A stretch of DNA of 64,000 nt from a virus, in the IMG/VR virus record IMGVR_UViG_3300017593_000751, positions 1 through 64,000 of that record, one strand, 5' to 3'. Position 1 is the stretch's first letter; each line of letters starts with the position of its first letter. The position numbers were made by a program, and so were the translations under genes. The notes under the pieces were generated by a model. The model was not told the origin of the DNA, did no database searches, and saw nothing but the letters and a program-made list of their open reading frames with translations. This document shows positions 2,267-42,082 of the stretch, piece after piece.

Positions 2267-3706
2267 TTATTCTCCGGGTTTGACTATTTCTTCTCTCACG
2301 GGTCTCCAAGTGCAACGGCAGTTATGAACCACGAAGCCCTTGGCCACATAGCTTTCATCTTCTTCCACAGACAGATTGTAAAGCGTTATCGGGCGGGAGG
2401 GCTTAGAAACAGAAACAGAGGATATCGGAAGAAGGTCAAACCTAATCTCTTTTTCTTCTACCAGGAACTTCACCTTATCCCCAGCTTCAACCTCCCTCGC
2501 CCTTCGCCACTGCCCGTTTACCAACACGGGGTGGTCCGCCGTCAATTGAAGCTTCTTTCTCTTCATACTCCTCACGCCCAAAGACAAGGTAACAACCTCC
2601 GGTCTCTGTCGCGGCGTTCGGTGTACCTGGACCACTCGGCGGAATCTGCCTTTATGAGTTAAAACCAACTCTCCTATTCCAATCTTGCCTATCCCTTTCC
2701 AACCGTCCGCCGTATAGACAGGAGTTCCGAAATATGTCAGACAATTAACGTGAACAGGAATTATCCCATCCGCCTCTGCTATATTCCAAACGTGCCCATC
2801 ATAGCCCAGGCAAACAATACAGGCGTCCGCGCTGGACTCAAACTGCACGCGGGTCAACTTGGCCTCTCTGTACCCCGCCAGAGTCCCGGCCGAAACTGCG
2901 GTAGCCGTCTCCGTTCGAGCTATCATCTCCGCCCGATACCGCCGCATCTTCCGCCGCTGGCGCATAAGCTCGCGCTGGAGGCGGGCTCTGCGGGCCGGGG
3001 TCAGGCCCCCTCGCATGGAGGCATAACGCTCAGTCCACCTCTCTTCCACCCTCTCCAATGCCTTTATCTGTGGCCTATTCAGCCCCACCAAAGGTTCGCC
3101 GTCAGGCCCGGCCAGTCCGCGAATGTATCGCCCTATGGTCTCCATGCTCTGGCCGCGCTCAATCCCGCGAGCTATAACGTCGCGCAAGGCTTCCCGCGTG
3201 CTCTCGACAATGCGGGTAACTCTTTGCGCCGCGTTCTGTCTGGCCCATTCCACTGCATAACGATTTATCACTTCCCAAGAGGTCTTCCACTTGGCCAACT
3301 GAATCGCCCGGTCCATGCTCTGAGCATAGATGCTCATTTGCTGTCGGCCAAAAACCTGAGTGCCTTTATTAGTCAGGCAATTCCAATCCACCAAACGGGC
3401 GGTGATAGTATCGGGGTCCAGCTGTATCTTGTTTAGCTCTTGAGATTTTCGCAGCACGTCCGGCCCCAAATCAGAATATTCCGGCAGCCAAGGCCGGAGA
3501 TTTTCCATCAAGGACAAATCCGGCTCCATGCCTAAAATAAGCTGATGAACTACACCATACATCACGGCCTCGTCCATCAGCTTCAGCCAAGCGCGGACAG
3601 CCCGATAGAATCGCCGAACGTTGCGATTGTATATCTCCAACAGTCGGCGATGTGTTCGGGTTCTTCCACTCAGGGCTTTGCTTATGTCCATGAAAAACGA
3701 TGACAT
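2267..3706 (-). CDS. head morphogenesis protein (MuF/SPP1 gp7 family), intein-containing
   Basis: RAEMIARTET...DACIVCLGYDG...IPVHVN|CRC once the intein is removed. Confidence 0.85.
   Translation of the reverse strand: MSSFFMDISKALSGRTRTHRRLLEIYNRNVRRFYRAVRAWLKLMDEAVMYGVVHQLILGMEPDLSLMENLRPWLPEYSDLGPDVLRKSQELNKIQLDPDTITARLVDWNCLTNKGTQVFGRQQMSIYAQSMDRAIQLAKWKTSWEVINRYAVEWARQNAAQRVTRIVESTREALRDVIARGIERGQSMETIGRYIRGLAGPDGEPLVGLNRPQIKALERVEERWTERYASMRGGLTPARRARLQRELMRQRRKMRRYRAEMIARTETATAVSAGTLAGYREAKLTRVQFESSADACIVCLGYDGHVWNIAEADGIIPVHVNCLTYFGTPVYTADGWKGIGKIGIGELVLTHKGRFRRVVQVHRTPRQRPEVVTLSLGVRSMKRKKLQLTADHPVLVNGQWRRAREVEAGDKVKFLVEEKEIRFDLLPISSVSVSKPSRPITLYNLSVEEDESYVAKGFVVHNCRCTWRPVREEIVKPGE
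2321..2743 (-). other. mini-intein (141 aa, Hint only) in gp7
   Basis: Starts CLTYFGTPVYTADG, block B LTADHPV, ends YNLSVEEDESYVAKGFVVHN followed by C+1. Confidence 0.9.
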
Positions 3707-27205: not shown

Positions 27206-28246
27206 ATGGACAGAAAGAAACTGATGAATGAGTTGGTCAAGGTCTATCCCGCCGTGGACGCTCGCGCTGTAACGGAGGAGATGAAGTGCTTCCGTTTTGC
27301 AGGCCGGCGGGTAGTGGCCAGCAACGGCAACGTGGCCGTATGGGCCGAGCTGCCGGAGGACACCGGCATTGACGGCCTGGTGCCTGCCGAGAAGTTCTTC
27401 CACCTGCTGTCCGACTTGCGGGAGGACGAGCTGGAGATTGAGCAGAAGGACAATGAGCTTCATATCACCTGCGGACGATGTAGGGCCAGATACAAGATTC
27501 GCCCCCATGAGGGCGGATTCCTGGACTCATTGAAGGTAGAGGTTCCCGACGATGCTTGGCGTCCTTGGCCTGAGAAGATGGACGAAGGCTTGAAACTCTG
27601 CCGGTTCGCGGCCTCCCGCGACGCCAGTCAGGGAGCCTTGTGTGGAGTCCATGTGGACGACGAGGGCCTAGTTGCCACCGACTCTTATCGTATCGTCGGG
27701 TATTCCGGCGCACGGCTGCCGGAAGGCTGGGAGCCTCTTACGCTGTCTCAAGACTTGCTGGACGTGCTGGCCAAGCAGGGCGAAGCGGTCGAATCCTGGG
27801 CCGTGGTGGACGGGACGGTGTATTTGAGCTTGGGGTCCACCAAAATCGGGGCCAGGCTGCTGGCCAGCGAGTTCCCTGCGGGGGCCAGGCAGTTCTTGGC
27901 CCAGGCGGCGGAGTTGCCCGAAGAGGTGGAGCTGCCTCAAGAGCTTATCGAGGCCGTCCGCCGGCATGGGGACCAGATGTCCGACGTGCCGGACCTGGAC
28001 CGCGAGATTACAGTGTTGCTGGGGGAAGGCAAGCTGACAATCTCCAGTTCCGATGGTGTGCTGTATGAGCTGTCGGAAGACCTGGACCTGCCCGACTCGG
28101 CCACCAAGGTATCGTTCAAGGTCAATCCCAGCTTCTTGGCCGATGTTCTGGGCCTGACGCGGAAAATGGCCTACGGGGCCGACAAGCGCATGGTGGCTTT
28201 CAAGGCAGAGGATTTTACTTATCTGACGGCGGTAGAGTGGGTATAG
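27206..28246 (+). CDS. dnaN: DNA sliding clamp (beta-clamp-like), replication module copy
   Basis: VASNG, LVPAEKF, LCGVHV, LVATDSYRI, VNPSFLADVL; precedes polymerase and clamp loader. Confidence 0.8.
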   Translation: MDRKKLMNELVKVYPAVDARAVTEEMKCFRFAGRRVVASNGNVAVWAELPEDTGIDGLVPAEKFFHLLSDLREDELEIEQKDNELHITCGRCRARYKIRPHEGGFLDSLKVEVPDDAWRPWPEKMDEGLKLCRFAASRDASQGALCGVHVDDEGLVATDSYRIVGYSGARLPEGWEPLTLSQDLLDVLAKQGEAVESWAVVDGTVYLSLGSTKIGARLLASEFPAGARQFLAQAAELPEEVELPQELIEAVRRHGDQMSDVPDLDREITVLLGEGKLTISSSDGVLYELSEDLDLPDSATKVSFKVNPSFLADVLGLTRKMAYGADKRMVAFKAEDFTYLTAVEWV

Positions 28247-30729
28247 AATTGGCACGGTCTTTTCACTTTGACGCGGGTGAAATCCTGGACCGTCCGGCGG
28301 CCCCCGTCCGTGACTGTACTTCCTGCGGGTTGTTCCGGCATTGCCGCAGCCCACGAATGCCCACCAGCGGCGAGGGTCGTTTGGGCATCTTCGTGGTGGC
28401 CGAAGCCCCCGGCGAGGTCGAGGACAAGCAGAACACTCAACTAGTCGGCCCCGCTGGCCAATTCCTGCGGGAACAAATGGAAGCCGTGGGGCTGGACCTG
28501 GACCGGGATTGTTGGCGGCAGAACGTGGTCCGTTGTCGCCCTCCGGGGAACCGTGAGCCTGCCAAAGAAGAGATAGAAGCCTGCCGCCGACTGTTGGAAG
28601 AGGACATCCGACAACGCAAGCCCGACCTTATCATTGCCTTCGGGACGGTGGCTATGGCTGGAGTGCTTTATGATGCTCCTTTCGTTCCGACAGCCGTAAA
28701 GATGCACGAGCGCATCCTGCCCAGTCCTTTGTGGGGCTGCTGGGTAGCTTGCGGCTACCATCCCTCTTGGTATCTCCACGAAGAAGGCAGACACGACCAT
28801 TTGATGCGGCGGTTTCTGGAGAAGGTTCTGAAATGGCTGGAGGACCACGAATATCAAGACCCGCGATTGGACGAGGACGATTTTCAGCTGGTGGAAGATT
28901 TGGAGCAGGTGCGGGAGGTATTGAGGCGGGCTTCAGAATCAAAAACGCCGGTGGCCGTGGACTTCGAGACCAACTGCCTCAGCCCGTGGCAGCAGGGGGC
29001 CAAGCTGTTGACGGTGGGCTTGACTGATTCCGAAGATACAGGTTGGTGTGTTCCCGTTGAACACATAGGCGCTCGTTGGTCCCCGAAAGAATTGGAAGAA
29101 GTCAAACGTCTGTTGGCCGAGTTTTTAGCCAGCCCCGCTCCCAAGGTCATTCAGAACTGGGCTTCAATGGAAGAACCTTGGAGCGTGGTTCATCTGGGCA
29201 CGTCCATAAACAACGTCATCGGCGATACGATGGTACGCGAGCACGTTCTGGACAATCGCCGGGGCGTCTGCGGCCAGGAGTTTCAAACCTATGTTCGTTA
29301 TGGCACGACTTACAAAAGCGAAGTGAACCGGGTGGACCTGGCCCGGACTCCCTTGGACTTGGTGGCCCGATACAACGTATTGGACTGCCGTTACATGTTG
29401 AGGTGGTACAAGGACCAAGAGCGCGAATTCGACGCCGACGAAACCGGCGACCTTCGCAGGGCGTGTAGCTTGTTTCATGAATCCCTGCCTGTTATGGCCC
29501 GGTGCAAGGTTCGAGGGATAAAGCTGGACCTTTCGGTATTGGACAGGTTGGAAAGGAAGGTCAAGGCCGAGCAGCAACGTGAGCAGAAGGCCATGAACGC
29601 GGCCTGTTTGAAAAGGTTCCGACAACGCTATGGCCGCCGCTGGAAGCCGGGGAGTAATCGTGATAAGCAGCTCTTGTTTTATGGTCTGCTCGGCCTGAAG
29701 CCCACAAGGCTGACCAATAAAGGCATCGATTGGACCAACCCGCTTCATTGTTCTACGGATGAAGAGTCCTTGCTCAACTTGTTGGAGCAAGTGGAGCCTG
29801 ACGGGCCGGAGGCGGCTTTGATTCGTTTGTGCCTGCGGGGTTCGGAGCTGACCAAGCTGGGCGGAGAGATAGCCAATCTGCGGCGCATGGCCGATGACAA
29901 TGGTTATGTTCATCCTTCTTTTCATTTACACGTCGCCGAGAGCTACCGGTCGTCCTCCAGCGACCCCAACTTCCAAAACATTCCGGTCAGAGACCCGGAA
30001 ATGGCCGAGGTGAGAAAAGCTTTCGTGCCGCGGCTGGACTGGTTGATGGAGTTGGACTTTTCCGGCAATGAGGTCCGGGCCATAGCCTGCGCCTCGCGGG
30101 ATGAAAGACTGATATACAACATCGCCCACGACGTGGACTATCACCGGCATTACGCGGCTTTGCTGTTCGCCAAACCGGAAGAGGAAATCACGAAACAGGA
30201 GCGTTATTTGGGCAAGAACCAGTTCGTGTTCCCTCAATTCTATGGTTCATACTGGAAGAGCATAGCCAACAAGAATCCGCAATGGCCCATTGAACGGGTA
30301 CGAAAGGTGGAGGAAAAGTTTTGGAGGGATTTGCCCGGCGTGCGGGAATGGCAGGAAAGGAAACAGGAGGAGTACCGCCGACTGGGCTATGTCCGACTGA
30401 TGACCGGGTTCCGCGTCCATTGGGGCAAGCACGGCCCGTTGACGCGGAACCAAATCTGCAATATTCCCATACAAGGCCCTGCCTTTCATCGTTTGTTGGC
30501 CGTTATGATAAAGGTGGAGGCGGAAATGAACCGCAGGGGATTGCGGAGCATGGTAATAGGACAGATTCACGACTCCATCGTTTCCGACATAGCAGACGAT
30601 GAATTGGAAGAGGTGATAGAATTGCAAAGGACCATAGCCACACAGCCGATTTGGGATTGGGATAAGGCCGTGCCTTGGGAGGTGGAGGTCAAAGTAGGGC
30701 CGAACCTGTTGGAGATGGAAGTGATATGA
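28237..30729 (+). CDS. polA: family-4 uracil-DNA glycosylase fused to family A DNA polymerase
   Basis: CTSCGL, AEAPG..ED, VRCRPPGNR.P, YHPS; exonuclease VDFET; motif A LDFSGNEVR, B RYLGKNQFVFPQFYG, C QIHDS. Confidence 0.95.
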   Translation: MGIELARSFHFDAGEILDRPAAPVRDCTSCGLFRHCRSPRMPTSGEGRLGIFVVAEAPGEVEDKQNTQLVGPAGQFLREQMEAVGLDLDRDCWRQNVVRCRPPGNREPAKEEIEACRRLLEEDIRQRKPDLIIAFGTVAMAGVLYDAPFVPTAVKMHERILPSPLWGCWVACGYHPSWYLHEEGRHDHLMRRFLEKVLKWLEDHEYQDPRLDEDDFQLVEDLEQVREVLRRASESKTPVAVDFETNCLSPWQQGAKLLTVGLTDSEDTGWCVPVEHIGARWSPKELEEVKRLLAEFLASPAPKVIQNWASMEEPWSVVHLGTSINNVIGDTMVREHVLDNRRGVCGQEFQTYVRYGTTYKSEVNRVDLARTPLDLVARYNVLDCRYMLRWYKDQEREFDADETGDLRRACSLFHESLPVMARCKVRGIKLDLSVLDRLERKVKAEQQREQKAMNAACLKRFRQRYGRRWKPGSNRDKQLLFYGLLGLKPTRLTNKGIDWTNPLHCSTDEESLLNLLEQVEPDGPEAALIRLCLRGSELTKLGGEIANLRRMADDNGYVHPSFHLHVAESYRSSSSDPNFQNIPVRDPEMAEVRKAFVPRLDWLMELDFSGNEVRAIACASRDERLIYNIAHDVDYHRHYAALLFAKPEEEITKQERYLGKNQFVFPQFYGSYWKSIANKNPQWPIERVRKVEEKFWRDLPGVREWQERKQEEYRRLGYVRLMTGFRVHWGKHGPLTRNQICNIPIQGPAFHRLLAVMIKVEAEMNRRGLRSMVIGQIHDSIVSDIADDELEEVIELQRTIATQPIWDWDKAVPWEVEVKVGPNLLEMEVI

Positions 30730-32972: not shown

Positions 32973-33527
32973 ATGACCCCCGAACAAGAGTTGGAGTATA
33001 ATCAGCTTCAGTCTTGCCTCCATATCAATCTTCACGGCCTTCACGAAGACGCCCAAGGCCAGCCGGAGTTGGCTTTCCGGGCTGGCGAATTGGCCGCCGA
33101 GTTGAAGGCCGCGGCCAAACGCGCCAAGTTGAACTATGAAGAGGTGGCGGCTAGCGTGGAGATGGAGGTAAGGAGCGGCCCTGAGGATTTCGGGCTGAAG
33201 AAGGTTACGGAGTCCACTATCGCCTCTGTGGTCACGAAGCATCCCGACGTTTTATCGGCCCGCAAGGCCCAGATAGAAGCGGAACGGGACGCGGACTTGG
33301 CCGCGGCCCTGGCCAATGCCTTTGAGCATCGCCGCTCCATGCTCAAGTCGGAGGTGGAGTTGTATGTAAACAACTATTGGGGCGATGTAGAAGTGAAAGA
33401 ACGAGACATGCGAAGGAACGAAACGGCTTCGCGGGTAAAGGCAGCTGAAGATAAAGAGGCCGAAATTGAAGCCAAGCGGCGGGAACGGCGGGGAGTGAAA
33501 CGGAGGCGGAAGGGGGTGACTGAATGA
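32973..33527 (+). CDS. UvsY-like recombination mediator
   Basis: Helical, KVTESTI...AFEHRRSML; between SSB and RecA. Confidence 0.6.
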   Translation: MTPEQELEYNQLQSCLHINLHGLHEDAQGQPELAFRAGELAAELKAAAKRAKLNYEEVAASVEMEVRSGPEDFGLKKVTESTIASVVTKHPDVLSARKAQIEAERDADLAAALANAFEHRRSMLKSEVELYVNNYWGDVEVKERDMRRNETASRVKAAEDKEAEIEAKRRERRGVKRRRKGVTE

Positions 33528-34699
33528 AAAGACGAAGGTCGGCAAAACAGGCAAGGGGAACGGCGGAGAGCCTTCATCGCCAGGACTTGCCGCCCTGCCG
33601 GTATTTTCTGAGCACAGGCTCAACTCTGCTGGACTTGGCCATTTCCGACCGCTACCCCGGCGGTGTAGGCTCCGGCCGGACCACGCAGATTATCGGCGAC
33701 CACTCCACCGCCAAGACCGTCATCGTCAAGGAGATTTTAGGGGCTGCCCAACGGCTGGGCGGCTACGCGGTGGAAGAGGACGCGGAATACACGCCGGACT
33801 TTCTGCGGGCGGAACTGTTCGGCCTCCACGTGGGCAAATGGGCGGATGAGGCCGTACAGGCCGAGGCCCGCAACATGCCCATATATGAGGCTGTTCGCAT
33901 CGAGAAGGACTATTGCTACCGCAACCCCGAAAGCATAGAGGCCGTATTCGACGAAGAGATTGGCCCACTTTGTCAACTGGTGGAGGGGCGATTGGGCGAG
34001 GGGGCGAAGGCCAAGCAGGTTGAGCCTTTGCCCAAGCCCTTGGCTATCGGCGTGGACACCTTCACGGCCCTGCCCAGCAGGACAGAGAAGGGCGAAGCCT
34101 TGGACGAAAGGAGCTATCGGGCGGAGAGGGCCAAGCGCATGAGTGCTGGCTTCCGCAAGTGGCTGGCCCCTATGGCCCGGAACGATGTGGCCTTGATAGC
34201 CGTGGACCACATCAGAGACAATATCGGCGTCATGTTCGGCCCGAAATGGACCACCAGCGGCGGCAAGGCCCTTCAGCAATACGCCAGCACGCGCATCTTT
34301 CTCGCGCAGGCCGGCGATTTGAAGAACCGGGCAGGTAGGACAGTAGGGGTGAAAATCAAGGCCAAGGTGGTCAAAAACAAGATAGCGCCGCCGGGACGGG
34401 AGACCTTCTTTTATGTACTGTTTGATTATGGAATAGACGACATCCGGGGCAACTTGGAATGGCTGGCCGAGCAGGCCCAGGCCGGAATTGAAACAGCGCT
34501 GGGGAAGTCGGGGGCCTGGTGGTCCTGGCGAGGCGAAAAGCTGGGCCAAGGAATAGAGGGGGCCATCGAGGCCGTGGAGAGGGCCGGATTGGAAAAGGAG
34601 CTGGAGGCCGAGGTGGCGCGGGTCTGGCAAGTGGTCTATGAAGGCCCGGGGAGGGCGAGGAAAAGACGGCATGGCCAAGAGGCGCAAGAAGAAGTCTAA
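33524..34699 (+). CDS. recA: RecA/UvsX-like recombinase
   Basis: STGSTLLDLAI, GDHSTAKT, DAE, TTSGGKALQQYASTRI, VVKNKIAPP. Confidence 0.9.
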   Translation: MKRRRSAKQARGTAESLHRQDLPPCRYFLSTGSTLLDLAISDRYPGGVGSGRTTQIIGDHSTAKTVIVKEILGAAQRLGGYAVEEDAEYTPDFLRAELFGLHVGKWADEAVQAEARNMPIYEAVRIEKDYCYRNPESIEAVFDEEIGPLCQLVEGRLGEGAKAKQVEPLPKPLAIGVDTFTALPSRTEKGEALDERSYRAERAKRMSAGFRKWLAPMARNDVALIAVDHIRDNIGVMFGPKWTTSGGKALQQYASTRIFLAQAGDLKNRAGRTVGVKIKAKVVKNKIAPPGRETFFYVLFDYGIDDIRGNLEWLAEQAQAGIETALGKSGAWWSWRGEKLGQGIEGAIEAVERAGLEKELEAEVARVWQVVYEGPGRARKRRHGQEAQEEV

Positions 34700-35084
34700 G
34701 CTTCAAAGGGCCAAGGAAAATCCTGCCTCTAGATACTGGCGGAACAAGGCGGATGAGGCTTGGAGAAAGGCGGTCTTGACAAGGGATGGTTATCGTTGCG
34801 TTGTTTGCGGGACAGACCGCAATCTTCAGGTCCATCATCTGTTTAGTAGAGGCCGGGCGGATACACGGCACGAAGTTTCAAACGGGATAACGTTGTGCTC
34901 AGCGCATCATAAGTGGAGTCGGGAGATTAGCCCTCATAAGGGACCGGTGGCTTTCTTTCTGTGGCTCCAGAAGAACCGTCCTGACCAATGGGAATGGCTG
35001 AAAAAACATGTAGCTGAACCTGAAAATTACAAGCCTGATTTTCGGGAGACATATAATAGACTGAGGGCAAACGAAGATGGGTAG
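34671..35084 (+). CDS. HNH endonuclease (NinG-like)
   Basis: RDGYRCVVCG..LQVHHL..NGITLCSAHH. Confidence 0.85.
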   Translation: MAKRRKKKSKLQRAKENPASRYWRNKADEAWRKAVLTRDGYRCVVCGTDRNLQVHHLFSRGRADTRHEVSNGITLCSAHHKWSREISPHKGPVAFFLWLQKNRPDQWEWLKKHVAEPENYKPDFRETYNRLRANEDG

Positions 35085-35242
35085 TGGGTCAAGAATGAAA
35101 TCACCTCGTTTTTCGTGGGCCACCCGGAGCGTTGCCCCTCCCATCTTAGTAGAAACAAGCGGGTTTGTGGGCCAGGGTCAGAATCGCCCCGTCTTTTGTG
35201 GGTCATAAAGAGCATCGCCCCAATCCGAGGAATAATAGTTTC

Positions 35243-35335
35243 GGTCAGGTAAGGCATGGTCAGGTGAGGTTGGGCGGGGTATGGTGAGGCAAGGTCGGGT
35301 CCGGTGTGGTGTGGTAAGGTGAGGTAAGGTTTGGC
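35243..35335 (+). repeat. GGY-NN pentamer array (19 GGY units), candidate guide-like ncRNA
   Basis: GG at every 5th position, always followed by a pyrimidine, with variable NN. Confidence 0.9.
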
Positions 35336-35336
35336 G

Positions 35337-35486
35337 ATGAAAGAAGCTATCCTGAAAAGGCAAGGTTGGACCGTCATCAGACTGCATTGGCGAGACATAG
35401 AACAAGATGTTCAAGCTTGTGTAGATAAGATTTTGGCGGCAATTCCAGCGAAGTCTGCGTATAATAGACTGGTCGGCAAAGATTGA
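35337..35486 (+). pseudogene. C-terminal remnant of DUF559/Vsr-like endonuclease
   Basis: LKRQGWTVIRLHWRDIEQDVQACVDKIL; catalytic N-terminal part absent. Confidence 0.6.
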
Positions 35487-35497
35487 AAACCAAAGAT

Positions 35498-35637
35498 TGC
35501 CCGCCTGAGGCGCGGGGAGCGCCTCGTTGGCAGCCTGTGCTGGCTCAATATTGGCCGGTCCCAATCGGAGAGGGTAGGCGGCGACGCGACGCCGAACGGC
35601 GGCGGCAGCCCGGCTGGGGAAACCGGGCAGGCGGGCA
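35498..35637 (+). ncRNA. structured element A (multibranch, CUGGGGAAA loop)
   Basis: 10-bp closing stem TGCCCGCCTG/CAGGCGGGCA; 6-bp stem with 5-nt loop; CCCGG-CTGGGGAAA-CCGGG. Confidence 0.65.
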
Positions 35638-35657
35638 TGACATTGACAACCGAAGAT

Positions 35658-35805
35658 TGCCCGTCCGGGGCACGGCAGGTGCCCGGTGGCGCTGCCCGAG
35701 GCCACAGAGGCCCGAACTGCCTGCCGCGAGAGTGAAGCAATGCTGCCCGCTCGAGCGCGGCATTGCGGGCAGGGGACTCGGCTGGGGAAACCGAGCGGAT
35801 GGACA
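35658..35805 (+). ncRNA. structured element B (paralogue of A)
   Basis: TGCCCGTCCG/CGGATGGACA; GGGCAC/GTGCCC; CTCGG-CTGGGGAAA-CCGAG; same ATTGAMAACCRAAGAT leader as A. Confidence 0.65.
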
Positions 35806-35826
35806 CAAGATAAGAGGAGACAGACA

Positions 35827-36078
35827 ATGGCGAAGGCCAAAACTGACCTTGAGGCGGTTCGGATTTTGTTGGCACAATGCCTTGAATGGGAATTGTACCG
35901 GCACAAAAGCAAGGGATATGCGTGCGGCATCAAACACAAAGGTGAATGGCTTTATGCTTGCGGTCGTCAATTGAGGTTTGCAATCGCCGCCGCTTTGGAC
36001 GCGGCGGGGCTGAATCCGGGCGGGCAAGCGAAGGAGAGGATGAATGGCAACGGAGAAATCATTAGTAGAAAAGCTTAA
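35827..36078 (+). CDS. small alpha-beta3-alpha protein
   Basis: LLAQCLEWELYRHKSKGYACGI...YACGRQLRFAIAAAL; GAGGAG RBS. Confidence 0.65.
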   Translation: MAKAKTDLEAVRILLAQCLEWELYRHKSKGYACGIKHKGEWLYACGRQLRFAIAAALDAAGLNPGGQAKERMNGNGEIISRKA

Positions 36079-36316
36079 GGTCATCTCTAAAGACTACGAC
36101 CGGCTTAGAGAAGTCCTGACCGCTCGCGTCGATGGTATGAACGAAAAGAACACTATTGGTCGGTTTGAAGATTCGGGTGTGTTGAGGATTGAAACCATTA
36201 TTTCGGGCGCCACTGTGTATCTCTCTGAGACCGGTCAAGCCCAGCTTGTCCGCTTCATCTGCCGTGCGCGGGGCTGGCAAGTTCCGCCGGAAATTGTGGA
36301 GGAGGAGGAGAAATGA
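36044..36316 (+). CDS. hypothetical protein
   Basis: RBS; operon context. Confidence 0.5.
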   Translation: MATEKSLVEKLKVISKDYDRLREVLTARVDGMNEKNTIGRFEDSGVLRIETIISGATVYLSETGQAQLVRFICRARGWQVPPEIVEEEEK

Positions 36317-36519
36317 CTTGGTTCATCCTCGCTGCCTTGGTGTACCTCGTCGGCTTCGTCGTGGCCTTCGTCCTGACCGTCGGAGAGGACTTCGGATGGA
36401 AGGATGCCGCCCTGTTCGCGTTGTGGTGGCCGATAGTGGCAGCGGTCTTGATTGTGTTGTTCGTAGATGAAACCATAAGACAAGTATGCAGCAAACGGCG
36501 GAAGGAGAACAACCGATGA
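36313..36519 (+). CDS. small two-TM membrane protein
   Basis: Hydrophobic, ALWWP motif; ATGA-coupled. Confidence 0.6.
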   Translation: MTWFILAALVYLVGFVVAFVLTVGEDFGWKDAALFALWWPIVAAVLIVLFVDETIRQVCSKRRKENNR

Positions 36520-36752
36520 CAAAGCAAACAGAGCGAATAAATACGTTTGGCTTGTTGGCCCAACTCCGGCGGATGAACACAGAATGGCACTTGGGGTATA
36601 GTCCGCGAGAGGGCCATTATTGCCACGTCTGGCTCCCGGCGGCGCTCGGCGGAAACTATTTGGCGTCGGGCCGAGACAAAATCATGGGCAGGGCAATCAA
36701 GCAAGCTCTTGTCGAAGTAGAACGCATCAGGCAGGCGGAAACAGGAGGATAA
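36516..36752 (+). CDS. small alpha-beta3-alpha protein
   Basis: NTFGLLAQLRRMNTEWHLGY..HYCHVW...MGRAIKQAL; close paralogue of 37942. Confidence 0.65.
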   Translation: MTKQTERINTFGLLAQLRRMNTEWHLGYSPREGHYCHVWLPAALGGNYLASGRDKIMGRAIKQALVEVERIRQAETGG

Positions 36753-36755
36753 CCA

Positions 36756-36905
36756 ATGACCAGGCCAGCAAGGAACGGAAGCGGTCGCGGACGTGGCCAG
36801 CCCGGCGGAGGACGCCGGGGCAGGAACACCGGCCCATGCCGCCGAGGTGGCCCCGGCTACGGTCGAGGCGGCGGTCGTGGTAAGGGTACCGGAAGGCAAG
36901 GATAG
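36756..36905 (+). CDS. Gly/Arg (RGG)-rich 49-aa peptide
   Basis: Own translation MTRPARNGSGRGRGQPGGGRRGRNTGPCRRGGPGYGRGGGRGKGTGRQG; AGGAGG RBS. Confidence 0.65.
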   Translation: MTRPARNGSGRGRGQPGGGRRGRNTGPCRRGGPGYGRGGGRGKGTGRQG

Positions 36906-36970
36906 GTATCATCCGAGGCCACGTGGCCTTTGCCCTGAACGCCTCGCCTGCGGGCGACGGCTAGGGGCAA

Positions 36971-37079
36971 GCCCGCCCGGATTGATTGACGTGGAAGAGT
37001 GCAGGGCGCGGCGGCGGGAGGAATCACCGACCGCCAAAACGCCCACGGGAACCGCCGAGGGGTAAGGCGGCGGGCGGGC
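36971..37079 (+). ncRNA. structured element C
   Basis: GCCCGCCCG/CGGGCGGGC closing stem; CCGCC-GAGGGGTAA-GGCGG. Confidence 0.6.
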
Positions 37080-37107
37080 AAGGCAGGACGGAAAGGAGAC
37101 TACAAAA

Positions 37108-37566
37108 ATGACAAGAGTATCAGACTTCTTTAGATGGTGGCAGGCGCTTGACCAATGCCTGCCCGACGGTTGGTGTCTGAGGGCGGGCATCAATGGGGAC
37201 GACGGCCATTGGTTTTACACATGCTGCGCCAAGCCGCAATTGACTCGCCCTATCGCAACATGCGCTGGCAGCCCTGTTGAAGCGGCCAATAAGGCCGTCT
37301 GGGCGTCTCAACAGGAAGAAACTTGGTGGGAGGCACTCAGCCGCCTTTTCCCTGACGGATGGTGTATTTCAAGGTACATCACTTCACAAAACGACGTACT
37401 CTACGGATTCGCTGATTTCCGCTATTACCCGGCGCAGACCACCAGTGGCCGCACGCCCGCTGAGGCCATAATTGGCGCGATTGACGCGCGAATTGATGAG
37501 CTGAAACAAGAGAAGGAATGCCGGGAGGCCCGAGAGATTGCCAGGAAAATAGCTAGGTGGCTGTAA
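37108..37566 (+). CDS. tandem alpha-beta3-alpha protein
   Basis: Two internal repeats WW.AL....PDGWC.....G.(S/T)P.EA...A. Confidence 0.7.
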   Translation: MTRVSDFFRWWQALDQCLPDGWCLRAGINGDDGHWFYTCCAKPQLTRPIATCAGSPVEAANKAVWASQQEETWWEALSRLFPDGWCISRYITSQNDVLYGFADFRYYPAQTTSGRTPAEAIIGAIDARIDELKQEKECREAREIARKIARWL

Positions 37567-37577
37567 CCAAAGGCAAC

Positions 37578-37649
37578 CCCGCCCGGACGTAAGGGAAGAG
37601 GCGGTTGCTAGCGCCGCGGGAGTCCCCGAGGGGTACGGGGACGGGCGGG
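37578..37649 (+). ncRNA. structured element D (72 nt, tRNA-sized, non-canonical)
   Basis: CCCGCCCG/CGGGCGGG; GCGGT-TGCTAGC-GCCGC; TCCCC-GAGGGGTAC-GGGGA. Confidence 0.6.
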
Positions 37650-37726
37650 AATGGGCTGAATGGCCGGAGGTATAGACGATGGCGAGAGGCAGCCCAATGC
37701 ATCAATCTATTGAAAGGAGGACAGCA

Positions 37727-37942
37727 ATGCCTGATGTTCAAACGAACTTAGCCGTGGCCAAAGAGGGCCTTTCGCAGGCGTTATACAAAACGCACAAAGC
37801 ATCGGAATGGATGTCTGGAAGAGTGCGAAGCTATCGGGTCGCCCTTGACGCGGTGAGCGAGGCCTTCCGGGCAGCAGAAACAGCGATGATAGCTTTAGGC
37901 CAAGTTCGGAAAGTTTTGCAAACAGTGAGTAAGGATAAATAA
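37727..37942 (+). CDS. hypothetical helical protein
   Basis: AAGGAGG RBS. Confidence 0.55.
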   Translation: MPDVQTNLAVAKEGLSQALYKTHKASEWMSGRVRSYRVALDAVSEAFRAAETAMIALGQVRKVLQTVSKDK

Positions 37943-38247
37943 TGGCCAAAAGACCAAACACGCTGAATCTACTGGCCAAGCTAAGACGGGAGCACGAGTT
38001 TTGGGAGCTCTACCGCGTCTTTTCCCGTTACTTCTGCCGCATTTGGGAAAGTGGCCGCGTATTTAAAGGTCATGGCGATTTGATGGGCGAGGCGATTCAG
38101 GAGGCGTTGGAAGGGGTGAAATCCTGGCGGGGGTGCGCAGAACAATCAGGGAACTCGCGGCGCAAAACGGCGAAAACAGCTCGCCGAGCGGACCAACGGC
38201 GGTATGAGAAAACAAGGAAGGGGACGAAAACAAAGACGAAGGAGTAG
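37942..38247 (+). CDS. small alpha-beta3-alpha protein
   Basis: NTLNLLAKLRREHEFWELYR..YFCRIW..FKGHGDLMGEAIQEAL. Confidence 0.65.
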   Translation: MAKRPNTLNLLAKLRREHEFWELYRVFSRYFCRIWESGRVFKGHGDLMGEAIQEALEGVKSWRGCAEQSGNSRRKTAKTARRADQRRYEKTRKGTKTKTKE

Positions 38248-38250
38248 AAG

Positions 38251-38559
38251 ATGTCAGACAAAAACAAAGACCGCCAAATGACGGGCGAAGAAATGCTACG
38301 AGCGGTTGGTTGGGTCAAGCAATCGCAGGTAACTGAAAATCTGCATTGCGGTCAGCTTGCTTGCGAGTTTTGCCAAGGGCGAGGCTATGTGTACTCTATG
38401 CCGGATTCCGCCTACGAAGTCTTGGCAAAGGTGGCGGAGAGGTCTTGGGGCGACGCGGAGGTTTTATTGAACCGCCAGCGCTCCACTTCCGTTCTTGTTT
38501 GTCCTCGTTGTTTAGGCAAAGGGTGGACCAAGGCGGCGAAAATAGAGGAAAAGACATGA
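38251..38559 (+). CDS. DnaJ-type zinc-finger protein
   Basis: CEFCQGRG...CPRCLGKG. Confidence 0.65.
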   Translation: MSDKNKDRQMTGEEMLRAVGWVKQSQVTENLHCGQLACEFCQGRGYVYSMPDSAYEVLAKVAERSWGDAEVLLNRQRSTSVLVCPRCLGKGWTKAAKIEEKT

Positions 38560-38876
38560 AACCAATCCGCCAATGGTGCCAGGAAATCACGCGGTGGCGG
38601 GAACGGAAAGGTTTCCGAACCCCGCAATCGCTGGCCCCCGGCGAACGCGAGTTGATGCTGGGCAAGCTGATGCTGGTAGTTTCAGAACTGGCCGAGGCCG
38701 CCGAAGCCGTGCGGGACGGCGACCGCGCCAATTTCGCGGAGGAATTGGCGGATACGGCCATTAGGCTCTTTGATATTTGCGGGGCCTGCGAGATAGATTT
38801 GGAAACGGAGATTAAGGCCAAGATGAAGAAGAACGAATCCCGCCCGACAAGGCATGGGCGGGGGAGTGCTTTGTGA
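38556..38876 (+). CDS. mazG: MazG-like nucleotide pyrophosphohydrolase
   Basis: LMLVVSELAEAAEAVR...EELADTAIRLFD...KMKKNESRP..HG. Confidence 0.85.
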   Translation: MKPIRQWCQEITRWRERKGFRTPQSLAPGERELMLGKLMLVVSELAEAAEAVRDGDRANFAEELADTAIRLFDICGACEIDLETEIKAKMKKNESRPTRHGRGSAL

Positions 38877-39979
38877 TGCTTGAAAGCCTATACATCCGAA
38901 ACTTCCAATCCCACGCTGATACTCTTGTTGAGTTCTCGCCCGGAGTAACGGTTATCGTAGGTTCTTCCAACGCGGGCAAGACCGCCATACTCCGCGCCCT
39001 GCGGTGGCTGGCGACCAATCGCCCCACCGGTCCCGGTATCGTTCGTAAAGGCAACGATGATAATTGCCGCGTCGTTCTTCGGTTGGATGACGGCACGAAG
39101 ATAGAACGCGCCCGCACGACGAAGAGTGCTGGCCATTATTCCTTGGTGCTCCCCGGCCGGAAGATGGTTCAATTTGAGGCCATGAAAGGGGCGGTTCCGG
39201 AGGCTGTGACTGATTCGCTGAACCTGGGCGAGTTGAACGTCCAGGCCCAAACCGCCGGGTTGTTCCTGGTATTGGACAGCCCCGGCAAGATAGCCCGGGC
39301 ATTGAACGATGCCGTGCATTTGGACGAGGCGGAGGCCGCCGCTTCGGCCGCTCAGGCCAGGGTTCGGCGATTGTCCGCCGAGAAGGCGGCGGAGCAAGGC
39401 CGGGCTGCGGAGCTGGACCGCGAGTTGGCCGTCTTCGCCAAGCTGCCTGATTATGAAGTTGGTGTGCGAAAGGCCGAAGAGCTAACTTCCCGCCTCCAAG
39501 AGCTAAAAACGAAGCTGGAAGGGCTGCGGGGATTGCTTCAAGACATCCGCGAGGTTTCCGAGGCCATTGAAAGAACGGCTCCGCCGAAAGAGCTGAGGCC
39601 CGCCGTGGCCAAGGCGGAGAAAGTAGCCGAAGCGCTTTTAGATAAGCTGGACCAATGGGGGGCGTTGGACGAGCTGACGGTAGAGATAAAGAGAGTTTGG
39701 ATAGAATTGACAAGAGCAACCCCGCCGAAAGGATTGGCGGAGGCTATTGATTCCGCGACCAAGCTGGACCGGGCCTTGTCCCGCCTGGACCGTGAAGCTC
39801 AAAGCATAAACAGCTTGCTGGACCAGCTGGCGAGAACGGAAGAAGTCCTGGATGACGCCAAGGACGCGGCGGAAAGCGCTCGTGATGAATATAATAAAGT
39901 GCGGGCGGAACTGACTCATTGCCCGACTTGTGGGCAAGAGCTGGACGCTGCGGCAAAGGAAAGGATGCTGGCGAAATGA
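38873..39979 (+). CDS. sbcC: SbcC/Rad50-like ATPase, N-terminal half
   Basis: IRNFQSH, GSSNAGKTAILRAL, Q-loop, coiled coil, CPTCG zinc hook; no Walker B. Confidence 0.9.
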   Translation: MMLESLYIRNFQSHADTLVEFSPGVTVIVGSSNAGKTAILRALRWLATNRPTGPGIVRKGNDDNCRVVLRLDDGTKIERARTTKSAGHYSLVLPGRKMVQFEAMKGAVPEAVTDSLNLGELNVQAQTAGLFLVLDSPGKIARALNDAVHLDEAEAAASAAQARVRRLSAEKAAEQGRAAELDRELAVFAKLPDYEVGVRKAEELTSRLQELKTKLEGLRGLLQDIREVSEAIERTAPPKELRPAVAKAEKVAEALLDKLDQWGALDELTVEIKRVWIELTRATPPKGLAEAIDSATKLDRALSRLDREAQSINSLLDQLARTEEVLDDAKDAAESARDEYNKVRAELTHCPTCGQELDAAAKERMLAK

Positions 39980-40974
39980 AGCTGCTTATCACAGGGGATT
40001 GGCACTTGAGAGCCTCTCGCCCGGAGAGGCGGACGGAAGAGGACTTCGCCGCCGTGTGCTTGGGCAAGGTGAATCAGGTCTTGGATATAGCGGAGAGGGA
40101 AGAGTGCAGATTGATAATTCAACCCGGCGACTTCTTCCACACGCCCAGACCAAGCGGAGAATTGGTGGTCGGGTTGATGGTATTGTTGAAACAACATGAT
40201 TTTCTCAGGCGGGCCGACCTATTGACAATACATGGCCAGCACGACTTGGCCTATCATTCAAAGGCCGCTCGTGAGAGTAGTATGTTGCGGATATTGGACG
40301 TCGGGGGGCTTTTGTGGCTTCTTGATTACCGGGAAGTGGACGAAAAGAAGGGCAATAATAATCTGATTGAAGATTTCACAGTGAGCACCGTAACGACGGA
40401 AGTATGCATCCGCGGCGCGGGTTGGGGGCAAGAACCCCCACCTCCGCCAGAAGAACATTACGATTGCAAGGTTCTAGTAGCCCACGCAATGGTGGGCGAC
40501 AAGAAGCTTTGGCCTAGCCAGGAATTGACCGGCCCCGCTGATTGGGTTCGGAAGCATCCCGGCTATGACCTTTATGTGTTGGGCGACTATCACTACCCTT
40601 TCATGGAGAAGGTAGGCGACGCGCTCGTAGTCAATGCTGGCGTCCTGATTCGTCAACAATACTCGGAGCGCGAATTGAATCACCGCCCTCAGGTGGTGGC
40701 GTACGATACGGAGACTCGAAAGACCAAGACGATATATCTGGACGTGGCCCCTGCGGAGAAGGCTTTCTCTCCGCCTTCGGCCAGGTCGGAAAAGGCCGAA
40801 CAGTTCGAAGAGTTCACGCGACGTTTGCAAGAACAGGGCAAGGTCGGCGTGGACTTCGAGAGCAACCTGCAAGCCTTCTTGGAGGCGTACGAAACCCCGC
40901 CAAAGGTCCGCGAGGCCGTCTGGCAGGCCGTGAAAGAGGCGAAAGAAACGAAGGAGACTAGACGTGGCGGATAG
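39976..40974 (+). CDS. sbcD: SbcD/Mre11 metallophosphoesterase nuclease
   Basis: GDWH, PGDFFH, GQHD, AHAM, GDYH, NAG. Confidence 0.9.
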   Translation: MKLLITGDWHLRASRPERRTEEDFAAVCLGKVNQVLDIAEREECRLIIQPGDFFHTPRPSGELVVGLMVLLKQHDFLRRADLLTIHGQHDLAYHSKAARESSMLRILDVGGLLWLLDYREVDEKKGNNNLIEDFTVSTVTTEVCIRGAGWGQEPPPPPEEHYDCKVLVAHAMVGDKKLWPSQELTGPADWVRKHPGYDLYVLGDYHYPFMEKVGDALVVNAGVLIRQQYSERELNHRPQVVAYDTETRKTKTIYLDVAPAEKAFSPPSARSEKAEQFEEFTRRLQEQGKVGVDFESNLQAFLEAYETPPKVREAVWQAVKEAKETKETRRGG

Positions 40975-41251
40975 TGAGCAAAACGAGCTTAGAAAAGACC
41001 TAGCACGGGTCAAAGAGGCCAAGGCCAAGTTAGAAGAAGCTGAGCGGCGGGTGGAGCAATTGAAGGGCAAGCGGGCCGCATTGTTGGACCGTCTGAAGAA
41101 TGAGTTCGGCTTCTCCAATCCGGCCGAGGCGGAGGGCCGCGTAGAAGAGATGGAAGCAGAGATTATGGACTTGGAAGGACAGCTGAAGGACGAATTGGAA
41201 CGGATAGACGACCTGTTGAAAGAGATGGAGGAACAAATCGATGAGGCTTAG
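40964..41251 (+). CDS. coiled-coil protein (possible SbcC linker piece)
   Basis: Heptad-rich; lies between SbcD and SbcC C-half. Confidence 0.6.
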   Translation: MADSEQNELRKDLARVKEAKAKLEEAERRVEQLKGKRAALLDRLKNEFGFSNPAEAEGRVEEMEAEIMDLEGQLKDELERIDDLLKEMEEQIDEA

Positions 41252-41453
41252 ATGTCCGAAGTGCGGTGAAACTAATATAGATGCTACTTTTACTTGGGGC
41301 GGGGAGTACGAATGCCCCAAATGTGGGGAGGAATGGCAAATTGATTTGGTGGAGCTGGCCGCTCAGGCCACAAGGGCCTTGGTAAATATAGACCATTCCT
41401 TGGTTCAATTGAACCGGAACCTGCAAGCCTTGTTGCGAAAAATTGACCACTGA
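41241..41453 (+). CDS. small zinc-ribbon protein
   Basis: CPKCG...CPKCG. Confidence 0.65.
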   Translation: MRLRCPKCGETNIDATFTWGGEYECPKCGEEWQIDLVELAAQATRALVNIDHSLVQLNRNLQALLRKIDH

Positions 41454-42082
41454 TGTCTGTTGAGCTAATATCTCGCGTGGAGGCCCACAAGACCAGATTG
41501 GCCGAGATGAAGGCCGTTTACGGTCGATTGAAGGCCATGCGGGGCGAGGCTGTCAAACGGGCTTCGGACTTGGCCCGTCAGGAGAAAGACGCTGAGGCCG
41601 CCCATTCCATCATCGTTGAGGTTTTGAGGGCCACTCAAGAAGAAACGGTAGGCTTGGTCAATGAGCTGGTCTCTTTGGCCTTGGCCGCCGTCTATGGGCC
41701 GGAATACTCTTTTGAGCTGGAGTTCTCCATCCGCCGCAACCAAAGCGAGGCCACTCCTTGGGTACTTCGGAACGGCGAAAGGTTCAGTCCGCGAGAAGAG
41801 GTCGGAGGCGGCATATTGGATATATGCTCTCTGGCCTTGAGGCTGGCCTTGTGGAGCCTGAAGGTTCCGCGGACCGCCCCTGTGTTCATTCTGGACGAAC
41901 CGGCCAAGTGGCTTTCGGCGGACAAGCAGGCAGCCTTCGGCAGGCTGCTGAAAGAAGTAAGTGAAAAGCTGGGGGTGCAAATCATCGTGGTTTCGCACTC
42001 TCGCGGTATAATAGAGTGTGGCGACAAGACGTATGAGGTCAGGATAGAAAAGGGAATCAGTCAAGTGGAGTTGGTCAAGTGA
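41453..42082 (+). CDS. sbcC: SbcC/Rad50-like ATPase, C-terminal half
   Basis: VGGGILDI signature variant, FILDEP Walker B, VVSH H-loop. Confidence 0.85.
   Translation: MSVELISRVEAHKTRLAEMKAVYGRLKAMRGEAVKRASDLARQEKDAEAAHSIIVEVLRATQEETVGLVNELVSLALAAVYGPEYSFELEFSIRRNQSEATPWVLRNGERFSPREEVGGGILDICSLALRLALWSLKVPRTAPVFILDEPAKWLSADKQAAFGRLLKEVSEKLGVQIIVVSHSRGIIECGDKTYEVRIEKGISQVELVK

Follow-up and report, generated by a model that had tools for sequence, protein, structure and literature searches.

Does the span of about 3 kb between the HNH endonuclease gene and the MazG and SbcCD genes of the virus record IMGVR_UViG_3300017593_000751 hold a single RNA-protein system? The window considered here comprises bases 1-64000 of this 73,277-nt IMG/VR record, which is rated linear and 71% complete. 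The original prediction had read a GGY-NN array, four structured elements and a set of small genes in this span as one undescribed module of non-coding RNA and small proteins. The present analysis favors, at a probability of roughly 0.6, the view that the vent phage has a variable accessory slot here, with RecA/HNH on one side and MazG/SbcCD on the other, and that two unrelated things lie in it next to each other. One is the array, which would be a solo vrRNA of the VIPR type, or a recent relic of one, in a new phage lineage, the system itself having already been described in preprints of 2026. The other is a small-gene cassette, in which lie four copies (A-D) of what appears to be a new structured repeat, known from a single genome and belonging to no known family.

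The GGY-NN array and the VIPR class

The array that the original prediction had noticed is present, and the pattern GG[C/T]NN holds in 19 of its 19 consecutive units, the NN positions being occupied by 10 different dinucleotides. The array and its immediate flanks on either side are as follows.

35112-35221, + strand: a 27-nt direct repeat, TTYGTGGGYCA-N9-..GCCCC, present three times in the leader before the array, with 67-100% identity and spacings of 52 and 31 nt
35243-35337, + strand: tract of 19 tandem GGY+NN units, very probably the guide tract of a VIPR-type vrRNA, in the same direction as the flanking genes
35337-35486, + strand: remnant of a DUF559 (Vsr-like) nuclease gene that joins the array without a gap and encodes the C-terminal third, its catalytic N-terminal part missing

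This grammar is the one described for vrRNAs, in which GGY and NN motifs alternate and Vipr, a RAMP protein, polymerises on the GGY motifs; double-stranded DNA is read by the NN dinucleotides, each unit skipping one base, and transcription of rival mobile elements is thereby silenced (bioRxiv 10.64898/2026.04.26.720920). The vrRNAs are small RNAs of about 100 nt to which Vipr binds, with a conserved structured tail 3' of the repeat tract. The published vrRNA callers require at least 4 units, and 9-16 units are typical in the two clades studied.

The distribution of such arrays in other sequences is revealing of the company they keep. The pattern (GGYNN)x9+GGY matched at least 120 viral and at least 120 genome stretches, and the figures given below rest on the matches listed. 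Matches on genome contigs were mostly perfect microsatellites, and those on viral contigs were nearly all degenerate arrays, often several per contig. More specifically, 78 of the 80 viral loci carried degenerate arrays and 56 of these 78 had a Vipr-profile match within the locus; for genome loci with simple microsatellites the corresponding figure was 1 of 97. A degenerate GGYNN array in a viral contig consequently predicts a nearby Vipr gene in about 7 of 10 cases. A single family of about 190 amino acids made up 25 of the 61 open reading frames (ORFs) that end no more than 60 nt upstream of the arrays, and 11 of the 64 downstream. Its aligned members matched phrog_4652 in 20 of 20 cases and Pfam in 0 of 20, and the profile of the family matches the Protein Data Bank entry 36pp_D, "SUSP1 Vipr protein", at E 1.3e-28. 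The grammar of the array, together with the travel of such arrays with Vipr elsewhere, thus takes the GGY-NN array out of the undescribed module and places it in a separate and already described class, and the original prediction of a single module fails on this point.

The array shares with VIPR vrRNAs the tandem 5-nt units with an invariant GGY and a variable NN, as well as being phage-encoded and co-directional with its neighbor genes. For the two clades studied, however, 9-16 units are reported and there are 19 here, a difference that weighs against a working vrRNA. The published arrays come from Enterobacteriaceae phages and are neighbored by vipr-vap1, while the present one lies in an uncultivated vent phage of a RecA/SbcCD lineage next to a DUF559 nuclease remnant, and neither a conserved tail nor a pseudoknot could be demonstrated for it. 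A solo array with perfect grammar in such an unrelated, uncultivated phage would place VIPR outside enteric phages.

Several further features of these arrays were observed. In many viral VIPR arrays the runs are staggered, a tract ending in ...GGCAAGG and the next one beginning after a 2-nt 'CA' phase shift (as in the comparison loci L377, L332, L329 and L387). The leader repeats at 35112-35221 could be operator, processing or handle sequences, and no counterpart of these 27-nt repeats was noticed near the arrays whose flanks were read. Other contigs in the same vent metagenomes (4 runs) carry different GGYNN tracts, as seen against window positions 35297-35337. These different tracts indicate that VIPR-type arrays, and possibly a Vipr donor, co-occur in the community.

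Solo status and proposed descent of the array

A solo vrRNA has been defined as one with no Vipr on its contig or none within 20 kb; such vrRNAs, functional ones included, are documented in VIPR-null SUSP1-family phages and F5 satellites, in a survey that reportedly covered Enterobacteriaceae phages and their satellites (bioRxiv 10.64898/2026.10.15.759431). A Vipr profile search of the 73-kb record gave zero matches, and as a positive control the profile found a match in 4 of 5 other array-bearing records. A scan of the record for the G-loop motif gave matches in spurious frames only and none in real frames, and in a six-frame translation search of 34900-38300 residual Vipr signal was absent. 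Because Vipr is absent from the record, and both contig ends are over 35 kb away, the published definition makes the array a solo vrRNA. It resembles the solo vrRNAs of SUSP1 relatives and F5 satellites both in the lack of vipr on the contig and in its position, at a place from which a VIPR-type locus appears to have lost its protein genes.

The reading frame that directly follows the array is informative about such a deletion. The stretch 35337-35486 matches Pfam DUF559 (PF04480) over profile positions 73-108 of 109 (E 6.6e-4; 20.0 bits with a cut-off of 20.6) and, by BLASTP, residues 65-99 of a 100-amino-acid DUF559 protein of locus L370 (E 1e-8), a protein that itself matches Pfam DUF559 at E 1.7e-14. 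Given the partial coverage of the profile and the match to the C-terminal third of the L370 protein, 35337-35486 is a DUF559 fragment. Locus L370 is laid out as vipr (2484-3023), DUF559 (3029-3331) and array (3348-3404), and the last 17 nt of the array in the window (GGTGAGGTAAGGTTTGG) are identical to the array end in this vipr-bearing locus. No similarity to L370 was found past the shared 17 nt, where DUF559 coding sequence follows in the window. From the fusion of the array to a truncated DUF559 gene and the arrangement in L370 we infer descent by deletion, in which an ancestor with the order vipr-DUF559-array, like that of L370, would have lost vipr and most of DUF559. In parallel to this, a deletion of vipr-vap1 is reported for SUSP1 relatives (bioRxiv 10.64898/2026.10.15.759431).

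Locus L379 carries an array in the same slot between RecA and SbcC, with the order RecA-like gene, small PD-(D/E)XK-like gene, array, small membrane proteins and SbcC. Its record (105 kb, 93% complete) is without Vipr and is the fifth record of the positive control. The guides of the array in the window differ from those of both L379 and L370. Taken together, the vent solo array, the Vipr-less syntenic L379 record of 93% completeness and the truncated DUF559 gene suggest that guide-only loci arise by repeated deletion in VIPR loci, and such loci may be common outside enteric phages. Small nuclease genes ending at an array start were observed in both relatives, in L370 at 3029-3404 (DUF559) and in L379 at 905-1320 (PDDEXK_15, E 0.001, below cut-off), and from this adjacency a nuclease-type gene may be an accessory of this VIPR clade.

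Across 80 loci of RecA relatives (877 kb) there were zero arrays of at least 8 units. The sole match to the Vipr profile in these 80 loci is at L171 3983-4690 (E 2.8e-26), downstream of RecA and near the contig end. This match near RecA indicates that VIPR visits this slot in the lineage.

The alternative that the array is the dead relic of a deleted VIPR locus, or is not solo at all because vipr is located in the 29% of the genome that the record lacks or has diverged beyond the reach of the profile, is rather unlikely, and several observations nonetheless count in its favor and against a live solo vrRNA. The record is 71% complete and Vipr proteins are diverse, so that vipr could be on the missing part or of a divergent type; indeed, 22 of the 78 listed array-bearing viral loci also lack a Vipr-profile match. 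DUF559 coding sequence stands directly 3' of the array and no recognisable tail comes after it, the conserved tail having possibly been deleted. When the guide was scored under the 1-nt-skip rule against shuffled-guide nulls, no target emerged: the best site in the own genome reached 24 of 36 positions, equal to the shuffled-guide maximum of 24, and the best in 3.9 Mb of loci reached 25, where the null reached up to 28. A 9-unit seed gave 2 matches in IMG/VR, with 2/20 and 5/20 positions agreeing outside the seed, which is chance level, and no RNA run was present among the listed runs containing the region. Decay, on the other hand, would break units, and GGY is kept in 19 of 19; the distance of the array from the contig ends, by which it is solo in the published sense, and the documented functional solo vrRNAs likewise speak for the solo reading. 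The identical sequence in the contigs of 4 runs points in the same direction, weakly, these being from one study and one of them possibly from the source sample. For the solo array itself, the odds between a live vrRNA and a relic are about even.

Transcription of the array is presumed, and if live it may borrow the Vipr of a co-infecting phage or prophage, either redirecting or blunting it; it would then use Vipr in trans. The 22 loci in which the analysed stretch lacks a Vipr-profile match, all within L324-L403, could represent further solo arrays or carry Vipr of divergent types.

Structured elements A-D

The non-coding blocks downstream of the array contain four related elements. Bit scores refer to a covariance model (R1) of the element.

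35488-35640 (core 35499-35637), + strand: element A, with closing stem GCCCGCCUG/CAGGCGGGC, hairpin P2 and terminal hairpin CCCGG-CUGGGGAAA-CCGGG; R1 144 bits
35648-35808 (core 35659-35805), + strand: element B, paralogue of A, with P1, P2 and terminal hairpin kept by compensatory changes, and with the Shine-Dalgarno sequence and start of the small gene p2 behind it; R1 131 bits
36958-37084 (core 36970-37081), + strand: element C, behind a 14-nt palindrome (36917-36930) and a hairpin (36929-36970); R1 88.5 bits
37566-37654 (core 37577-37650), + strand: element D, the shortest copy, followed by a hairpin (37652-37694) and the Shine-Dalgarno sequence of the small gene p8; R1 73.7 bits

In a MAFFT alignment of the four copies, the 5' strand GCCCGCCYG, the terminal hairpin and the 3' strand align, giving a common core that is closed by a 9-bp stem and whose terminal hairpin carries a GGGG loop. 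Of the 56 cells in this core, 96.4% are paired, and both sides have changed in 7 of 14 pairs. In the terminal hairpin all 5 pairs covary while the loop is kept as SWGGGGWAM. None of 500 shuffles was as good, and sliding the partner by 1-3 columns left 34-48% paired, a control that is flattering since the structure was derived from these same four sequences. Both helices appear in the minimum-energy folds of A, B, C and D, with z-scores of -2.05, -1.68, -3.55 and -0.99. The four related structured elements are thereby borne out as claimed, and so are the further hairpins at 36929-36970 and about 37652-37694, both of which are in minimum-energy folds.

The most economical interpretation of A-D, held tentatively and at somewhat less than even odds, is that of a lineage-specific, cis-acting intercistronic RNA structure. 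Elements A, B and D each start at a stop codon or at the element before them, or directly past it; C starts about 65 nt past the stop of the small gene p6, with two hairpins in between. A and B adjoin, and from the ends of B, C and D it is about 20-80 nt to the ribosome-binding site that follows. On the other strand, one G-U pair of B would become a C-A mismatch, which favors an RNA of the + strand. No terminator-like site was found on the + strand in 34000-39000 (the 5 sites there are all on the - strand, with 6.1 expected), and no U-tract follows A-D. The elements may thus act in cis in a polycistronic mRNA as stabilising, processing or insulating structures, and they may be bound by a neighboring protein.

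Intercistronic mRNA structures of comparable position are the repetitive extragenic palindromic (REP) sequences and bacterial interspersed mosaic elements (BIME), as well as the RNase III sites between the early genes of phage T7. Like these, A-D are GC-rich, are repeated between the cistrons of one transcription unit, and stand between a stop codon and the ribosome-binding site of the following gene without a U-tract. They differ in being multi-branched, 72-147 nt long and provided with a specific GGGG loop, and in being present as four copies in 2.2 kb; the dispersal in many copies that marks the REP/BIME type is not seen in the window and 85 other loci, where R1 finds the four copies of the window and none besides.

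Several results weigh against a cis-acting RNA. The energy z-scores are modest and similar on both strands, and the proposed role rests on four copies in one genome. Searches for homologues of A-D were negative: BLASTN of 35085-38250 against 50,697 phage records gave no match, and degenerate patterns of 24 and 26 nt from the 3' halves of C/D and A/B gave 0 matches in IMG/VR. An exact 14-mer of A and B, tried as a finder of relatives in IMG/VR, returned at least 120 chance stretches and was left unused as too unspecific. The model R1, searched against the window and 85 other loci (972 kb in all), found zero matches beyond the four copies, and a looser structure descriptor gave chance-level counts over the full 73 kb. 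The contigs of the 4 runs show zero differences over the region and hence no population covariation.

A role at the level of DNA would account for some of these properties. In this alternative A-D would be repeats with 9-bp inverted ends, similar to REP or to miniature inverted-repeat transposable elements, or else hot spots of recombination at which cassettes of small genes are shuffled, a role that promoter-stem-loop repeats have in T4-type phages. The 9-bp stem can also be read as terminal inverted repeats, the ends are conserved while the interiors vary (A and B are 82% and 81% identical at their ends only), the fold energies of the two strands are similar, and gene order differs between the window and L203, a metagenome locus with related small genes. 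The loop of the inner hairpin is nevertheless conserved and its stem covaries in 5 of 5 pairs, as expected for a folded single strand and not for inverted ends. Furthermore, the four copies lie on one strand within 2.2 kb, neither the rest of the window nor the 85 other loci (972 kb searched) contain another, and no target-site duplications were seen on reading the flanks. A DNA-level repeat is therefore unlikely, clearly more so than the cis-acting RNA structure.

The original prediction had also suggested that the RNAs might, for example, act as tRNA-mimic decoys, for which no support was found: ARAGORN reported 0 tRNA genes in the window, and Rfam gave 0 matches in the window at gathering score and, for 35000-38300 at E <= 10, nothing above chance level. 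Its argument that non-coding blocks are retained for function, the rest of the arm being tightly coding, holds in part. The arm is roughly as described, with other gaps of 138-297 nt on the + arm in a crude ORF map, and the blocks do contain real, related elements with covarying helices. A six-frame search of 34900-38300 for decayed copies of neighbor genes in the non-coding blocks found none.

At 36917-36930, right after the stop codon of the Arg/Gly-rich ORF, stands a perfect 14-nt palindrome, AGGCCACGTGGCCT, which has the look of a target for a dimeric DNA-binding protein, or else of a very tight hairpin.

The small-gene cassette and its surroundings

The stretch 35487-38247 would be a small-gene cassette of three paralogues with a fold resembling double-stranded RNA-binding domains (dsRBDs), a tandem-repeat protein, a membrane peptide, an Arg/Gly-rich peptide and a zinc ribbon, with A-D between the cistrons. 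Its genes are as follows.

35827-36078, + strand: p2, 83 amino acids (aa), small alpha-beta3-alpha family (putative dsRBD-like fold)
36044-36316, + strand: p3, 90 aa, no Pfam or PHROG match; weak similarity to an ORF of L203, E 0.007
36313-36519, + strand: p4, 68 aa, small membrane protein with two hydrophobic segments; weak phrog_7899 match, E 1.3e-3
36516-36752, + strand: p5, 78 aa, alpha-beta3-alpha family
36756-36905, + strand: p6, 49-aa Arg/Gly-rich ORF with a strong Shine-Dalgarno sequence, 70% GC, 20 G and 12 R
37108-37566, + strand: p7, 152 aa, internal tandem repeat WW.AL...PDGWC, E 2e-7
37727-37942, + strand: p8, 71 aa, no function assigned by Pfam or PHROG
37942-38247, + strand: p9, 101 aa, alpha-beta3-alpha family, basic tail; used for structure modelling
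38251-38559, + strand: p10, 102 aa, zinc ribbon with two CxxC pairs; weak zinc-ribbon-type matches

The RGG-rich peptide and the small membrane protein noticed originally are present as p6 and p4. Because p6 holds a hairpin (36798-36819) that is 82% identical to the terminal hairpin of A, it could be either a gene or a fifth, degraded element. Three of the four alpha-beta3-alpha genes that had been proposed are paralogues, p2, p5 and p9 (BLASTP E 8e-9 and 4e-4); the link of the fourth, p7, to this family is not significant (hhalign E 0.12). The only protein like p7 in a 5.8-billion-protein set is p7 itself, and one weak viral match to it was found, in L002 (30% identity). The profile of p2, p5 and p9 finds 9 proteins among 1.84 billion representatives, 3 of which are the window's own, and no small protein of the span had a tblastn match at E <= 1e-3 in 81 loci (the 80 RecA relatives and L002).

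An AlphaFold model of p9, made from an alignment of 8 sequences, predicts helices at residues 7-17 and from 48 onward and strands at 20-26, 29-36 and 39-45, with a core pLDDT of 84-93. The best Foldseek rows are the dsRBDs of ADAR2, ILF3 and RNase III (E 0.016-0.1). VIA Z scores of 5.4-7.2 are tied among HPF/RaiA, Acb4 of phage SPO1 and dsRBDs, in a range flagged as that of a common arrangement, and Atlas TM values of 0.55-0.60 agree with this. The model shares with dsRBDs the predicted topology alpha1-beta1-beta2-beta3-alpha2 over about 60 residues. The sequences differ from them, as Pfam dsrm (PF00035) gave zero matches at E <= 1 in the 10 small proteins and as the conserved residues of the family are Trp21 and Cys32 rather than the basic RNA-contact motifs that are found in dsRBDs. 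The predicted fold of p2, p5 and p9 is thus dsRBD-like without membership in dsrm, and RNA binding by these proteins is putative.

The relatives of these genes bear on whether proteins and RNA elements belong together. A search with a narrowed family alignment found 0 viral loci and 1 metagenome locus, L203, a contig of 1,443 nt that carries three family members, a p10 homologue and two other small genes with gaps of at most 20 nt. The p10 protein matches L203 825-1106 by BLASTP at E 7e-23, and the zinc-ribbon gene travels there with the alpha-beta3-alpha family. R1 gave zero matches on L203, so that on this single contig the proteins occur without the RNA elements, and the gene order differs from that of the window. 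The linkage of RNA and protein families in other genomes, whose absence the original prediction had named as a refutation, therefore fails in the one relative examined.

With these data, the single-module hypothesis can be weighed as a whole. It would have the array, A-D and the small proteins act together, the dsRBD-like proteins or the Arg/Gly peptide binding the structured RNAs as decoys or translational regulators. The adjacency of A-D to genes whose predicted fold resembles dsRNA-binding domains, the position of B, C and D each upstream of a small gene with A directly before B, and an Arg/Gly-rich ORF in mid-span are what it would lead one to expect. The array, however, is a separate, described system; tRNA and Rfam signals are absent; L203 packs three paralogues and the zinc-ribbon gene without the elements; and the family has no dsrm match at E <= 1 and conserves Trp and Cys instead of basic contact motifs. 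One module is accordingly improbable, and for A-D taken separately a dedicated RNA-protein partnership is judged about as improbable.

Least probable of all is a reading in which the solo vrRNA is live and uses the Vipr of co-infecting elements, while the dsRBD-like paralogues and A-D together constitute a new set of RNAs and proteins modulating VIPR or a different nucleic-acid-guided defence. Within it, guide RNAs or cyclic-nucleotide signals might for example be sequestered as by Acb4-like sponges. Were it true, A-D would be a new class of structured RNA tied to inter-phage warfare. A-D provide a clean, small case of covarying intergenic structures without a known family, resting on one genome.

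All features of the span are on the + strand. The HNH gene is followed by a 158-nt leader with repeats, the 95-nt array, a 51-codon ORF, 340 nt of non-coding sequence (A and B), p2-p6, 202 nt of non-coding sequence (two hairpins and C), p7, 160 nt of non-coding sequence (D and a hairpin) and p8-p10. The + arm 5' of the span holds a fusion of uracil-DNA glycosylase, exonuclease and PolA, a clamp-loader-like ATPase, RecA (33524-34699) and the HNH endonuclease; 3' of the span it holds MazG (38559-38876), the N-terminal part of an SbcC-like ATPase, SbcD and an SMC-type C-terminal part. The region was found in contigs of 4 DNA runs, all from hydrothermal-vent metagenomes of one study. Two features at the HNH end of the span are listed here.

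34638-35084, + strand: HNH endonuclease gene, Pfam HNH_2 E 6.9e-7
35460-35471, + strand: TATAATAGACTG, an exact second copy of 35052-35063; both copies encode YNRL in frame

The true start of the HNH gene is probably at residue 12, to judge from two database homologues (137 and 139 aa) that begin MAKRRKKK and MQKKK; the C-terminus YNRL..NE is common to both. The TATAAT that had been noted just before A is present at 35460-35465, within the second 12-mer, and a consensus scan found no -35 partner for it. TATAATAGACTG has 6 sites at no more than 2 mismatches, with 1.0 expected, two of the 6 being the seed itself. As a phage promoter consensus it was not established, a shared -35 not being visible. 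A second candidate, a 408-bp cassette inserted at the 3' end of the HNH gene with a 12-bp target duplication, was rejected, since an HNH homologue with 65% identity has the C-terminus YNRL..NE seen here and since an exact 12-mer pair within 3.3 kb, with a chance estimate of about 0.3, is not improbable.

The closest RecA relative, L123, carries different cargo in this slot. At L123 11280-12675 about eight spaced copies of TGTCACCC-N10-12-TGYCC extend over 480 nt and are followed by a 323-aa ORF that we take to be reminiscent of IS110-type transposases; the repeats and this ORF raise the question of a guide-RNA-like leader.

Two genes of the flanking arms have unusual architectures. At 28237-30729 a domain of the uracil-DNA-glycosylase superfamily, a 3'-5' exonuclease and a family A DNA polymerase are joined in a single ORF of 830 aa. 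At 38873-42082 an SbcC/Rad50-like ATPase appears to be split into separate ORFs around SbcD, in the order N-terminal ATPase part (368 aa), SbcD (351 aa), a 95-aa coiled-coil ORF, a 70-aa ORF and a C-terminal SMC_N part (209 aa). The 70-aa ORF has two CPKCGE motifs and is zinc-hook-like. L123 likewise has a 364-aa N-terminal SbcC part followed by SbcD.

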